A stretch of 41,133 bases of DNA from a virus (Duplodnaviria; Caudoviricetes): IMG/VR virus record IMGVR_UViG_3300020440_000028, positions 1 through 41,133 of that record; one strand, 5' to 3'. Each line of letters begins with the position of its first letter. Position 1 is the first letter of the stretch. The notes under the pieces were generated by a model. It was not told the DNA's origin and ran no database searches. It saw only the letters and a program-made list of their open reading frames with translations. Position numbers and translations under genes: made by a program. This document shows positions 10,312-20,236 of the stretch, piece after piece.

Positions 10312-11031
10312 TTATTGCTTGCCAATATCCCCCGCAATGTGGTGTCTCAATATTCTACGGGGCGGAATAGTTTTGACAAACTCCCGCAATATTTCCGCGT
10401 CGGTTCGGTCTTGCTGTTTTTTTGCTAATCGTTCCCAATGTATGTTTACATTTCCGCCGTTAGCATAGCACCCGCCCCGCTCATTATTATTTATGCGGTT
10501 CTTTTGGTTCCCGTGCGCTGTAAACCCGATTATATAATCTCGATCGGATCGGGCGCATAGCGGACCAGAAACGCCCCCGCAATTCACACAACTAACAGTT
10601 GATATATATTCTTCAGGACAGCGGACAACCCGCACCCCGTCCCGCTCAATAGATCGCGCCCCGCCCCAAAAGTTTTGTGCAACTGTCAAAACTGTGGGGA
10701 TCGCGCATTCTTTAAAGAAATATAAAACGTCTTTCCAAATATCCGCGCTGTAATTGATCGTTGCGAATTTCTGAGGGGGGAAATAATCTTTAAACCATAA
10801 GATCGGGTTAAAATGCGAAAAAGTGAAAGCAAAACCGCCCGCGGGGACACTGTTGTAAATGACGTTTAAATAATCATAATCAACTTCTTTATCTTCACAC
10901 CCGCGCCCACTAGGATTTAATTGACAGCTAACGGGGCAGGTTCCGAATTTGTCCCCTGATCCCGCCCGATAAGTAACAGCTAACCCTTTAGTTTTTTTGC
11001 CCGTCGAAAATTCATTTACTAATAAAACCAT
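10312..11031 (-). CDS. Cys-rich probable Fe-S/Zn protein, DUF7227/gp88-like
   Basis: TCPVSC, FTFSH, INYSAD, RCP..SCVNC..PLCAR..IIGFTAHG, GCYA..HW, LRHHIAGD; start moved to MVLLV (GGGAG SD). Confidence 0.7.
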   Translation of the reverse strand: MVLLVNEFSTGKKTKGLAVTYRAGSGDKFGTCPVSCQLNPSGRGCEDKEVDYDYLNVIYNSVPAGGFAFTFSHFNPILWFKDYFPPQKFATINYSADIWKDVLYFFKECAIPTVLTVAQNFWGGARSIERDGVRVVRCPEEYISTVSCVNCGGVSGPLCARSDRDYIIGFTAHGNQKNRINNNERGGCYANGGNVNIHWERLAKKQQDRTDAEILREFVKTIPPRRILRHHIAGDIGKQ

Positions 11032-11065
11032 TTTTAAAAACTCCCGTGTTATAAGATTTATCCCA

Positions 11066-11104
11066 TATATACATAAAAAAAGGGCGGATGTAAACACCCG
11101 CCCC
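11066..11104 (-). promoter_or_regulatory. terminator with embedded promoter
   Basis: GGGCGG hairpin + T tract; TTTACA-17-TATATA with -35 in the hairpin; ATGGGAT-AA-ATCTTAT just downstream. Confidence 0.7.
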
Positions 11105-11127
11105 AAATAGATTAAATTTTAAAGTTT

Positions 11128-12162
11128 TTAAACTACGGCTAGTTCTTGGAAACTTTCCGAAGCTTCAACCCGTAAAACTTCCCGCTCCCGCTCAATAAGG
11201 GTTCTTTCTACGTTGTCGCGGTTGTCGGAATTTTTAACCTTGAACGTTTCGGAGTTGTGGGAGCTGTAATAGGTCAAGGCGGAATATAAAGCCCAGACAG
11301 AAGTTCCCCGATTTTGGAATTCCTTGTCTAATTGCTCCATCATGGCACGGGCTTTTCGACTCTGGATCTCTCCCGCAACCTTGCCTTTTTTCTCGGCTCT
11401 GGCTATCTCGCTTTCTGACGCGGGGTAATTTGCATCAAGAACAGCTTGTGCTTGTTCGGGTGTTATCTCCCTATTCGCCCATTGCTCCCAAACTTTCACC
11501 TTAGTTTCATAAAAGGCTATCTGCTCAGTTAACCAAGGCTTTATATATTCAGGTTTAAAACCCGCCGTATGTCCCCAGTTCTGAGCGCCTAGTTCTTTTT
11601 GGCTAGTCATGCCATTAGTACAGATAAGATCAAGCGCACCCGCTTGAACGCGGATAGCTGTTTGACCGCCAAAAGAATTTACAACCCGCACCATAAAATT
11701 TAACTGGGTTCCGCTTCCTGATAACTGGCGGATCTCATGCCCGAGCCCGTCGAAGTGATAGCCGAACCTAGCAACAGATCCCCCGTCGGCGGTACTCTCG
11801 ATTAACTTTACATTGTTCATTGCGCCTTTTGGGAGTGTGTCTTCAAGCGCTTCTTGTACAGGGACAATAAGATCATCATTATTACAAATAGCATAGCGCT
11901 TTTTCATAATACCTAAGATGTCGTTGTTATCGGTCCTGACTATAGCTTGACCGCCTTCAGGATCTATTGATTTAAAATCGGACCAAATGATCTTATCTTT
12001 TCCCTTATCGTCTTTAACAAGGGTGCTAGTTGTCCCGTACTGAATGGGTCTAAACTCAGCCTTATAAGAACATTTATCCAAAGGCGGAAAGCCCTCAAAA
12101 GATTCGTTTTGCTCCGCCTTGGCAGAAGCATTACTCAAAAGATTGTTTACAATATCGTTCAT
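11128..12162 (-). CDS. DUF932-family protein
   Basis: AIVRTD..ILG..RY..N, NSFGG, LICTNGM, HT, RGTSVWALYSALTYYSSH. Confidence 0.85.
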   Translation of the reverse strand: MNDIVNNLLSNASAKAEQNESFEGFPPLDKCSYKAEFRPIQYGTTSTLVKDDKGKDKIIWSDFKSIDPEGGQAIVRTDNNDILGIMKKRYAICNNDDLIVPVQEALEDTLPKGAMNNVKLIESTADGGSVARFGYHFDGLGHEIRQLSGSGTQLNFMVRVVNSFGGQTAIRVQAGALDLICTNGMTSQKELGAQNWGHTAGFKPEYIKPWLTEQIAFYETKVKVWEQWANREITPEQAQAVLDANYPASESEIARAEKKGKVAGEIQSRKARAMMEQLDKEFQNRGTSVWALYSALTYYSSHNSETFKVKNSDNRDNVERTLIEREREVLRVEASESFQELAVV

Positions 12163-12183: not shown

Positions 12184-12246
12184 AAAATAAAACGGGGCGA
12201 GATTACCCCGCCCCAGAAGAATATAAGATAATATGAGATGGGTCAA
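12184..12246 (-). promoter_or_regulatory. promoter-hairpin cassette copy A
   Basis: TTGACC-17-TATTCT then GGGGCGGGG-TAAT-CTCGCCCC-GTTTTATTTT. Confidence 0.8.
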
Positions 12247-12628: not shown

Positions 12629-12687
12629 AAAAAAAAGGGGCGAGAATACCCCGCCCCTACAGTATGAGATTATATGGGATAGGTCAA
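12629..12687 (-). promoter_or_regulatory. promoter-hairpin cassette copy B
   Basis: TTGACC-17-TACTGT then GGGGCGGGG-TATT-CTCGCCCC-T8; near duplicate of copy A. Confidence 0.8.
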
Positions 12688-16754: not shown

Positions 16755-16823
16755 AAAAAAAGCCCCCTAGATATCTAGAGGGCTCTTCTTTAACTACGGG
16801 AGAGGGCCTATGACTTCCCTCAG
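16755..16823 (-). ncRNA. candidate ~70-nt anti-RBS sRNA
   Basis: Promoter TTGTAA-17-TATAAC (16830-16858), 5' hairpin GAGGG/CCCUC, seed UCCCGUAGUU, terminator 16755-16784, no ORF. Confidence 0.65.
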
Positions 16824-16852
16824 TATGTAGTTATACGCGACTATATAAGACT

Positions 16853-17619: not shown

Positions 17620-17980
17620 AAAAAAAGCCCCCAGATGAACCAGATCTGAGGGCCGTGAGGTTAGTTTTAGAGCTTCGTTGGCAGTTTGACTACCCGAAAG
17701 CAGTTTTTCTTCGACCAAACTCAGTTCTCACCGCTCCACTCTTTACTTTTGGCATCCAAATGGGTGTTCAAACCGTGTCCTCTCAATACACACTTTAGCA
17801 AGCAGTCACTTTTTTTGCGAAATAATTCGCTTAAGATCATTGGGTAGGTCCCAACTAGCTCTCGATCACAGAGCGCTTTTGCCGCTTCCAAAGACCTTGA
17901 ACACGTGGTCAACACACTTTGTTACATCGCGCTAAGTCTGCCTTGATGTACTTCCATGGTTTTAATGGGCGATCAGTATT
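17620..17980 (-). ncRNA. candidate ~360-nt structured ncRNA
   Basis: Promoter TTGACA-16-TATTTT (17985-18012), terminator 17620-17654, many hairpins incl. UUCG loop, no credible CDS. Confidence 0.65.
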
Positions 17981-18023
17981 ATCTAAAATAATAGCTTATA
18001 AGATATTGTCAAGCCCAAAAATT

Positions 18024-18058
18024 AAAAAAAAATAAAAAAAGCCCCGCTTGGCGGGGCT
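18024..18058 (-). terminator. intrinsic terminator of replication operon
   Basis: AGCCCCGC-caa-GCGGGGCT with long T tract. Confidence 0.92.
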
Positions 18059-18089
18059 AGGGTGGGAGGAAAGTGTTAGCAGTAAAAAA

Positions 18090-19982
18090 TTATTTAGCAG
18101 TTCCCCAATCGGGGCCAACCTCAATATCACACTTGCTCGGTATCTCTAAGTCTACCGCAGTTTCCATCATCTGAGAAATAGTTTCTGCATCTTTTATGTC
18201 TTTAACAGACATAGCTATCTCATCGTGAATCTGTATAAGCGGTATACGACCTGTTTTATATATATCAATCATAGCTTTTTTGGTCATATCAGCGGCTGAT
18301 GCCTGAATTAACCTATTCAGGGCCTTGTAGGTATACGCACGTTTGAGGCGTGTCGTATCGCCATACTCTTGCACCGCTTCGCGGTACGGGAGCGCTTTGT
18401 TCATCTCAAATGTATCGGGCTCCCACAGATCAAACCGACACTTACGTCCTAACAGGGACCGAATAGAACCGCTACTGCTCTTGTCGTTGAGTCTGTTTTG
18501 CACGCCTGTCATCAACATTTTAACAAACGGCACCCGTGTGTGGTACTGACGGACCAAGTCCTTGGCTTCGTCAAGCGTGATATCCAGTTGGTCAGACATT
18601 TTACCGACCCCCATACCGTACATCAGGCCCAAGTTTATCGTCTTTGCTTGCTTACGTGGTATCTGTGCCATTTCGGCAACCATTGTATGAAAGTCCATAT
18701 CGGGATTGTTCCGATAGCCGTGGACAAATTCTTCTACACCGTCAAGCGTGAGCCCTTTACTCTTGCCATACACATACGCATAGTGAACTAAGATCCGTGG
18801 TTCCTGTTGCGAGAAGTCAATCGCGGCCCATTTTTCGCCCTCTTCGGGGAGGAACAGAGAGCGAATCATAGGACCAAGCTCAGGATCCCGTGCGGGGATC
18901 TGCTGTAGGTTCGGGTTATTCATGGATATACGTCCTGACACGGTACCGCCGTCGTCGGATCGTATTTGATTTATATGGCTGTGTATGCGTCCATCTGAGT
19001 GACAATGCTTCATAATTGTATTAATAAAGGTCCCCGAGGTCTTGTTCAGGTTACGGGCTTGAACAATTAACTGTGGGAGTTCGTGGCTATGATCGCTCAG
19101 GAATTGTTTCGTGAACGATGGTGCGCCCTTCTCGGTCCGTGGGTATTCGATACTGAGAGACTCAAAGGCCTTCGCTATGGAGGCGGCAGCCCATATTTCG
19201 ATGTCATGCCCCACAAGTTTCTTAATGTGGCTCAGTACGTCTTTCTCGCGCTTGAGTAGCGAGTTCCGTGTGCGCTCGACCTTGTCCTGATCGACCCGTA
19301 CTCCGCGCCATGTCATGTCAATAAGGCACGGTAGTAGATCGAGCTCAAGATTAGCGATAGGCCATAGGTCTTCTTTGCCGAGTTGTCCTGACAGATAGTT
19401 CCAGAGTTCAAGTGTTAGCTCGGCGTCCCCCTCGGCATACGGTCCCACATACATTGCAGGCATCTTCCAGAGCTCGCCTTTTGGGTCCAGACCAAAGCTA
19501 CGGGCCGCTTCTACCAGATTTTTCTCGGATTTTACCTTGCCAAGGTGATCGTAGGCCAGAGCATTCAAACTATAACTAAATCGATTTTCGTCCAATAGAG
19601 CCGCAATAAGCATGGTATCGATGATTCGACCGTTGAGCGTGAATCCCATGCGCCGTATCCACCCCGCATCATACTGGGCATTGTGCATTATTTTATCGGC
19701 GGGGCTCTCAAATACTTTTTGTAGCCACTTGTTTACGATACGCTCGTCCAGATTACCCCCGTATCGGTGTCGTATGGGTATGTAACCTGACCAATCGCTG
19801 ACGGCAATGGCATATCCCACCACTTCACCGTCCCCTGTGGCCCATCCCGCCCCGAGTGTTTTGATATTTGGATCACGTGTTTCAACATCGATGGCTATTT
19901 GTTTGGCCTCGAAGATGTTAGGAAGCTCGGATGGCGGTAGCCATTCCGACTTTGGCGTATCAAACGCTAACTGCAAGGCCAT
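18090..19982 (-). CDS. polA: DNA polymerase family A (3'-5' exo + pol)
   Basis: IDVET, HNAQYD, GRISMNNPNLQQIP, DFSQQEPR, KTINLGLMYGMG, IQIHDE; start moved to MALQL. Confidence 0.96.
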   Translation of the reverse strand: MALQLAFDTPKSEWLPPSELPNIFEAKQIAIDVETRDPNIKTLGAGWATGDGEVVGYAIAVSDWSGYIPIRHRYGGNLDERIVNKWLQKVFESPADKIMHNAQYDAGWIRRMGFTLNGRIIDTMLIAALLDENRFSYSLNALAYDHLGKVKSEKNLVEAARSFGLDPKGELWKMPAMYVGPYAEGDAELTLELWNYLSGQLGKEDLWPIANLELDLLPCLIDMTWRGVRVDQDKVERTRNSLLKREKDVLSHIKKLVGHDIEIWAAASIAKAFESLSIEYPRTEKGAPSFTKQFLSDHSHELPQLIVQARNLNKTSGTFINTIMKHCHSDGRIHSHINQIRSDDGGTVSGRISMNNPNLQQIPARDPELGPMIRSLFLPEEGEKWAAIDFSQQEPRILVHYAYVYGKSKGLTLDGVEEFVHGYRNNPDMDFHTMVAEMAQIPRKQAKTINLGLMYGMGVGKMSDQLDITLDEAKDLVRQYHTRVPFVKMLMTGVQNRLNDKSSSGSIRSLLGRKCRFDLWEPDTFEMNKALPYREAVQEYGDTTRLKRAYTYKALNRLIQASAADMTKKAMIDIYKTGRIPLIQIHDEIAMSVKDIKDAETISQMMETAVDLEIPSKCDIEVGPDWGTAK

Positions 19983-20236
19983 TATTTTTCTCCTGCAAGG
20001 GCGCTGTAGCCACAGATATCGAGCCAACTGTCCTCATGGTCTGGTGTTTCTATCAGGCGGGACAGCTTGACCGCTATCATACATTGATAGACTTGCGATA
20101 CGGTTACCTCTTTCTCAAGTATAACCGACCATAGTTTTGCTATGCGTTTGTGGTTTTCGTGGGCATCGCCATAATCCTTGGCCCGTGGGCCGTTAATCAT
20201 CTTCTCGGCTTTGTCTAGTATTTGCTTCCTGTTCAT
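19982..20236 (-). CDS. DUF6378-like protein
   Basis: GPRAKDYGD...RIAKLWS...KLSR...DSWLDICGY. Confidence 0.8.
   Translation of the reverse strand: MNRKQILDKAEKMINGPRAKDYGDAHENHKRIAKLWSVILEKEVTVSQVYQCMIAVKLSRLIETPDHEDSWLDICGYSALAGEK

Follow-up and report, generated by a model that had tools for sequence, protein, structure and literature searches.

A likely non-coding RNA in a swappable slot beside a ribbon-helix-helix gene of an HTVC023P-type phage

What occupies the stretch between the DNA polymerase A (polA) gene and a small ribbon-helix-helix (RHH) gene in this phage? A preliminary description had proposed a structured non-coding RNA of about 360 nt on the minus strand, with two similar domains and a possible kissing loop. 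The window, the whole stretch of DNA analyzed here, is a linear virus record of 41 kb, 70% complete and with 44% G+C. Our analysis supports a transcribed, non-coding and uncatalogued phage RNA. The preliminary description was right about the unit itself, but overlooked that the whole module surrounding it is either present or absent.

Recognized genes in the window include those for portal, terminase, polA, primase, helicases and tail proteins. The nearest matches of the polA product are DSL-LC04, 023Pt_psg01, HTVC023P and HTVC027P, with identities of 49-56%. Since polA is closest to those of HTVC023P-type phages, we call the window phage HTVC023P-type. Its G+C content fits the range given for this group in the available text of PMC9599517 (42.1 +/- 6.4%), where these phages are described as widespread and largely uncultured. 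We found no paper on non-coding RNAs within the literature on HTVC023P-type phages, and the available text of PMC9599517 mentions none. The window also encodes GroES-like (891-1307), DUF932 (11128-12162) and DUF7227 (10312-11106) proteins, all on the minus strand.

Table 1. Features of the locus, in window coordinates
Feature	Position	Strand	Basis or remark
Optional 414-nt module	17620..18033	-	Present/absent comparison of related loci
polA terminator-like hairpin	18034..18058	-	Upstream slot boundary
RHH-like gene, 52 aa	17403..17561	-	Downstream slot boundary; Pfam RHH_5
DNA polymerase A gene	18090..20027	-	Best matches HTVC023P-type phages
Sigma-70-type promoter-like site TTGACA-16-TATTTT	17985..18012	-	Scan; putative function
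RNA body, 324 nt	17655..17978	-	RNA contigs 17664-17970; probable start ~17978 from -10 box
Intrinsic-terminator-like hairpin	17620..17654 (hairpin 17654-17626)	-	Scan
5' domain, about 245 nt	17730..17973	-	Closed by predicted helix; contains both repeats and the 8-nt complement
3' segment	17655..17729	-	More variable than 5' domain
Repeat copy 1 (AAAGTGTGT..TTTGGA..CAAAAG)	17876..17920	-	Significance borderline
Repeat copy 2	17746..17796	-	TTTGGA and CAAAAG each one base altered in other alleles
Complementary 8-mers	17904-17897 / 17771-17764	-	Inside 5' domain
64-codon ORF inside RNA	17721..17915	-	Judged spurious

An optional module beside the RHH gene

The module is composed of a promoter-like site, about 355 nt and a terminator. 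It is located between the polA terminator and the RHH gene. We compared 25 IMG/VR loci, anchored on the promoter region of the downstream gene. The slot contains this module in three loci, another short module in six and is empty in 16. Two of 80 polA relatives have the module, and its carriers are the window, L004, L005, L085 and L148. GGGC followed by seven T is found at each end of the insert (18033-17620), and gain or loss of the module by short-homology recombination is possible. An A-rich repeat is present at 18017-18040, and no tandem array was found in the element.

In the empty alleles, the RHH gene directly follows the polA terminator. This indicates that the module is not needed in cis and that the RHH gene likely has its own promoter. 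In our reading, this promoter is likely located at about 17618-17590, below the scan threshold. The RHH gene product matches Pfam RHH_5 with an E-value of 2.3e-05 and 24.5 bits, below the cut-off of 26.

An alternative module of 107 nt occupies the same slot in L124, L127, L128, L139, L141 and L145. It consists of a promoter, a hairpin whose TTTATA loop is constant and whose stem varies, and a second hairpin that is long, GC-rich and not followed by a T-run. Across the group, RNA modules of three kinds are found near the RHH gene, and the region is a swappable slot.

The RNA had been described as lying between its own promoter and terminator, and our scans indeed found a promoter-like site and a terminator-like hairpin at its two ends. 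Taken alone, these sites are near chance. The scans yielded seven promoters in the window versus 5.0 expected, and five terminators versus 2.5 expected. The spacer of the module promoter contains TATCTTATA (17997-18005), and a second copy precedes the RHH gene. A wider TATCTTATA pattern, chosen after those sites had been seen, has eight matches versus 2.1 expected, most of them in promoter-like regions. The motif TATC(C/T)(C/T)ATA occurs in the window at 11059, 12222, 12673, 12803, 17373, 17594, 17997 and 29027; most copies lie in promoter-like stretches among the small genes. It is a candidate operator of the RHH protein.

Other short elements were observed in these phages. A short promoter-RNA-terminator module with the seed (T/C)CCCGTAGT is located at 16756-16850 (-) in the window. 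By pattern, without a shuffle control, it is found in 42 of 80 polA loci, L012, L017, L024, L042, L044, L045, L055, L068 and L070 among them. The seed complements ACTACGGGA-like ribosome-binding sites at window starts 4205, 12608 and 16694, and in L070 seed and target have changed in a matching way. The module is a candidate for a phage small RNA of the anti-RBS type that would control a regulon. A CCTCCC motif just ahead of the terminator after polA is found in 34 of the 65 loci whose flanks are long enough (18040-18075, minus strand, in the window). This region possibly gives rise to a small RNA from the 3' UTR whose seed would be anti-Shine-Dalgarno. The window also has a pair of nearly identical short hairpins (GGGGCGGGGTA..TCTCGCC) at 12190-12210 and 12630-12655 (-), each directly behind a promoter-like site. 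In L029 (6273-6491), a 30-nt sequence occurs twice in an intergenic stretch.

Seawater RNA contigs and sequence constraint

The element is represented in seawater RNA. Six RNA runs from five studies contain a fraction of 0.38-0.52 of its sampled words. We mapped four of them (X15, X16, X17 and X19), all chosen for containing the element, and each of the four has well-matching contigs within 17664-17970, with one additional polA piece. A lack of RNA sequence from the element, which would have counted against it, was not seen. In X16, a 220-nt contig on the element has a depth of 695.8 and no mismatch, and a 171-nt polA contig has a depth of 5.75 and no mismatch; such contigs reveal neither the strand nor the ends nor the true level, RNA libraries can include DNA, and the comparison was made without a DNA run as control. 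The depth in the other three runs is 2.5-4.5, thus high depth is a property of X16 only. One X17 match (record 9) is a partial match of 40 nt. Empty contig bins in the RNA runs were not counted as silence.

The element is conserved far above neutral flanking sites. Its 324-nt core differs from those of L004, L005 and L085 at 13, 14 and 13 sites, respectively. Fourfold degenerate polA sites differ at 68 of 278 and 62 of 282 positions (22-25%), also in the last 450 nt of the gene. The differences between core (13/324 and 14/324) and polA sites are significant (Fisher p 7e-14 and 3e-11). In the RHH gene, 13 and 14 of 53 third positions differ. Variation in the element is clustered, and the longest invariant run is 107 nt (p 0.015). 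Promoter and terminator are kept in at least two allele types, which differ by about 4%. The low divergence could result from recent spread of the module instead of selection.

Predicted fold and the search for relatives

The stems in the preliminary description are all present in the sequence; the fold assembled from them fared less well, as stems in its 3' part are broken by natural variation. We counted 61 pairs, comprising these stems and one long helix, in four alleles. None shows a two-sided change, in a set of only four alleles about 96% alike. Two pairs have a one-sided change and still pair, and four are broken in three of the four alleles. The broken pairs are located one each in GCGAA/TTCGC, GTGAG/CTCAC, GAGTTT/AAGCTC and ACTGCT/GGTAGT, and three of the four belong to the 3' domain. 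Inspection by eye showed one case, AGTTTG/CAAACT, in which both sides change through an insertion. Unpaired positions show no excess of variable sites (p 0.27). A related record known only as protein, P0001, implies a third base at 17692, which is against the ACTGCT/GGTAGT hairpin. The folding z-score was -1.34 in the first test; the 324-nt core gave -1.36, and inclusion of the terminator gave -2.13. The specific fold proposed is not supported.

Our prediction also revealed a long helix, ATCGC-CCATT/AGTGG-A-GCGGT, that had been overlooked. It pairs 17973-17964 with 17740-17730 and is invariant across the four alleles. Both this helix and the TTGGG/CCCAA hairpin have pairing probabilities of 0.78-1.0 in the two alleles folded.

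Both copies of AAAGTGTGT..TTTGGA..CAAAAG exist as described, but the duplication that would make the fold pseudo-dimeric is borderline. The repeated 9-mer occurs in 21.5% of 1000 dinucleotide shuffles, and the internal duplication is matched by 56 of 1000 shuffles. By eye it spans about 100 nt. Depending on the test, between 0 and 93 of 300 shuffles align as well (eight alignment tests), and the chain tests gave 134/400 and 21/400. These comparisons are suggestive of an internal duplication.

Similarly, the 8/8 complement proposed to form a kissing loop is present in the sequence, but the interaction is at chance level and its bases are invariant. A perfect 8-bp complement is found in 47% of 1000 dinucleotide shuffles. 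The minimum-energy model folds it as a nested helix, from a program that cannot score pseudoknots. The GACC/GGTC hairpin required for the kissing loop has a probability of about 0.01, but forcing it costs only 1.9 kcal/mol. P0001 implies C to T at 17764, which converts the terminal kissing pair to G-U, or to A-U if the silent partner site also changed.

The element matches no catalogued family that we searched. Rfam, including manA, GOLLD, ROOL and OLE, gives no match at gathering score in the window, and none of its 18 weak window matches at E<=10 falls within 17660-17960. The earlier description could not assign the element to tRNA, tmRNA, RNase P or a known ribozyme, in agreement with ARAGORN and Rfam, which find none in it. 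It matches no Rfam model of group I/II introns or self-cleaving ribozymes, and no acceptor stem forms. Resemblances to tmRNA, RNase P and HEARO were not confirmed by ARAGORN and Rfam. A test for type III antitoxins or their phage mimics revealed no tandem array of short repeats. No motif match was found to the candidate RNAs of Fremin et al. within supplementary files 3-6 (PMC10690425).

All searches for remote relatives returned near-identical copies only, so covariation is absent. Blastn against phages and plasmids gave no match to the element. Motif scans of IMG/VR returned the same three contigs, in one scan among the matches listed for 59 of 64 parts; other IMG/VR matches were judged unrelated by nhmmer or by eye. 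In a scan seeded with the ORF, one of 498 candidates had the element, with a core that matches the window exactly; a second such scan gave none of 402. The GTDB motif scan yielded 115 loci with a best nhmmer E-value of 0.28, and its SAR116 cluster was rejected as it sits within an open reading frame. BLAST of 50 related contigs, run without a positive control, found 0/50, a profile search of 40 records found the control alone, and a unit-level profile found no remote relative. The RNA is uncatalogued, as the suggestion of a possibly new class implied; a claim of a new class is premature because no diverged member was found.

The relative 023Pt_psg01 has a 408-nt gap adjoining its RHH gene. Homology between its RNA and the element, seen by eye, was rejected as pairwise similarity is not significant. 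A pattern derived from the resemblance retrieved 25 loci, comprising 18 with a manA-like RNA, three with the element and four unrelated. The manA-like RNA is about 170 nt and is found in L384 (8808-8983, minus strand), L386, L389 and L390-L414, on pelagiphage and larger-phage contigs. In L396 it precedes what is presumably an ssb-like gene. It covaries strongly: among 15 distinct copies, 13 of 36 pairs show two-sided change, a result reached in 0 of 500 shuffles and counted on the same alignment from which the structure was drawn. Two of six tested copies match manA at E 5e-05, below the gathering score. The variant is mostly missed by Rfam. A related RHH gene is present in the fetched flanks of 7 of the 18 manA-like loci. 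This shows that structured RNA modules do reside in the RHH-gene region of HTVC023P-type phages.

The manA model RF01745 has no match in the element at E<=10. A variant model built from 15 sequences (R1) has 14 window matches at E<=10, none in the element, and no match in 85 loci, L004 and L005 included. The element is thus not filed as manA. A remote link is possible, since the Rfam manA model misses L384, a true variant. A long-range helix apparently shared by the two RNAs was dropped: in the larger family the bases concerned form local pairs, and in the element this helix has a probability of 0.00-0.03.

Possible roles and known RNA systems

We tentatively favor a stand-alone, trans-acting folded phage RNA of about 355 nt that serves as a scaffold or decoy during infection. 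Host sigma-70 polymerase would transcribe it from 18012-17985 and stop at 17654-17620. Because TATCTTATA is present in both promoter regions, the RNA and the RHH gene are probably under the same control. The long helix is predicted to close the 5' domain of 245 nt, which would contain both of the related modules. The complementary 8-mers may pair within the molecule or between copies, by analogy with the kissing loops of manA, ROOL and GOLLD. The folded RNA could titrate a host RNA-binding factor, for example a defense or translation protein. Such titration would help on some hosts only, which would keep the module optional. The decoy role is suggested by this optional distribution, together with general knowledge of phage decoys. 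A bolder version appears doubtful. It holds that the two modules arose by internal duplication and that kissing contacts from one molecule to another build an assembly made of RNA only, perhaps matured by a cut at 17750. Carried in the swappable slot beside the RHH regulator, in a phage group that ranks among the most abundant in the ocean, this RNA would disarm a host defense and represent a new class of large phage RNA.

A cis-acting leader, a tandem riboswitch or attenuator, is possible but unlikely. Its terminator would control whether transcription continues into the RHH gene and the small genes behind it, and the abundant RNA would then, with the same low likelihood, be the terminated OFF product. 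Two similar modules followed by a terminator and a gene are the layout of tandem riboswitches, and the gene here encodes a regulator. An antiterminator pairing 17728-17712 with the terminator 5' arm can be drawn in both alleles. However, shuffled sequences do as well (57-374 of 1000, and 138 and 178 of 500 for the energy gap), and its pairs differ between the two alleles. Transcription of the short module in the same slot could continue into the RHH gene, as that module has no T-run on this strand, and manA, located near a related gene in relatives, was once proposed as a riboswitch candidate in the available text of PMC2864571. However, empty alleles do without such a leader, the element matches no riboswitch family, and the downstream gene is neither metabolic nor transport.

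A base-pairing small RNA, or a sponge, acting on host mRNAs or phage small RNAs is improbable. The phage group is rich in promoter-seed-terminator modules, and the element terminator is similar in sequence to those of short RNA modules in related phages. However, duplexes with two short RNA candidates in the window are not above shuffles (65/200 and 90/200 as good). The best duplex with 54 start regions of the phage itself is matched or beaten by 29 of 30 shuffles, and no antisense match of at least 12 nt is found elsewhere in the window.

A comparably low probability applies to a short mRNA, a moron, that encodes the 64/82-codon ORF or an 11-codon ORF at 17957-17922. A promoter and terminator of its own are typical of morons. 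In every allele the frame runs for 50 codons or more without a stop, and some amino-acid changes are conservative (E to D, L to V). However, a one-base deletion at 17760 shifts the frame of the 64-codon ORF and alters its C-terminus in three of three other alleles (L004, L005 and L085). Its first 26 codons contain no synonymous change; about a quarter of silent sites differ in the flanking genes. The codon-type conservation that would mark a real protein is therefore not kept. Among 5.8 billion proteins the ORF has one relative, the frameshifted allele. It has no PHROG match and no credible Pfam match, and no Shine-Dalgarno-like site precedes its GTG.

Even less probable is a precursor, either self-cleaving or resembling a tRNA with its CCA end, that is cut near 17750 and whose two pieces stay paired via the long helix. 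Contigs from two studies (X15 and X16) end at 17750 and 17751, with no loose end, at the sequence GCCA, which is a weak hint of processing. However, contigs from the other two (X17 and X19) span this position, contigs cannot show ends, and neither an acceptor stem nor, by ARAGORN and Rfam, a tRNA, tmRNA or ribozyme is found. We give the least credence to a remnant without function, derived from a captured RNA or a mobile element, transcribed from a strong promoter and recently spread by recombination, which would explain the weak folding signal, the lack of covariation and remote relatives and the broken 3' stems, but not the non-uniform variation with its 107-nt invariant run or the retention of promoter and terminator in at least two allele types.

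Phage RNA decoys exist, for example pseudo-ToxI of phage PhiTE. Like pseudo-ToxI, the favored trans-acting RNA would be optional for the phage, has A-rich linkers and might titrate a defense protein of the host. Unlike it, the element has no tandem array. Compared to tandem riboswitches and attenuators, it shares the order of modules, terminator and gene, but has no known aptamer and no conserved antiterminator.

Like manA (RF01745), described in the available text of PMC2864571 as a marine-phage structured RNA without an assigned role, the element comes from a marine phage group, and a short 5' motif in it resembles the manA-like variant. Unlike manA, it is nearly twice as long and ends in its own terminator. 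manA RNAs assemble via kissing loops, according to the available part of 10.64898/2026.07.01.735769. GOLLD and ROOL are phage-borne, cage-forming RNAs in which kissing loops build oligomers, and in one strain ROOL, though abundant, is not essential, as given in the accessible text of PMC12286853. They are often located near tRNA islands in the sources available, whereas ARAGORN finds no tRNA in the window, a 70%-complete record. The function of such abundant phage RNAs is a standing question, to which close relatives with and without the element bring a built-in comparison of natural alleles. Similar to GOLLD and ROOL (PMC12286853, available text), the element is a large phage-borne RNA of unassigned function. 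At about 355 nt, compared to 659 and over 800 for these two, and known here from its sequence, it is short enough for synthesis, probing and cryo-EM.
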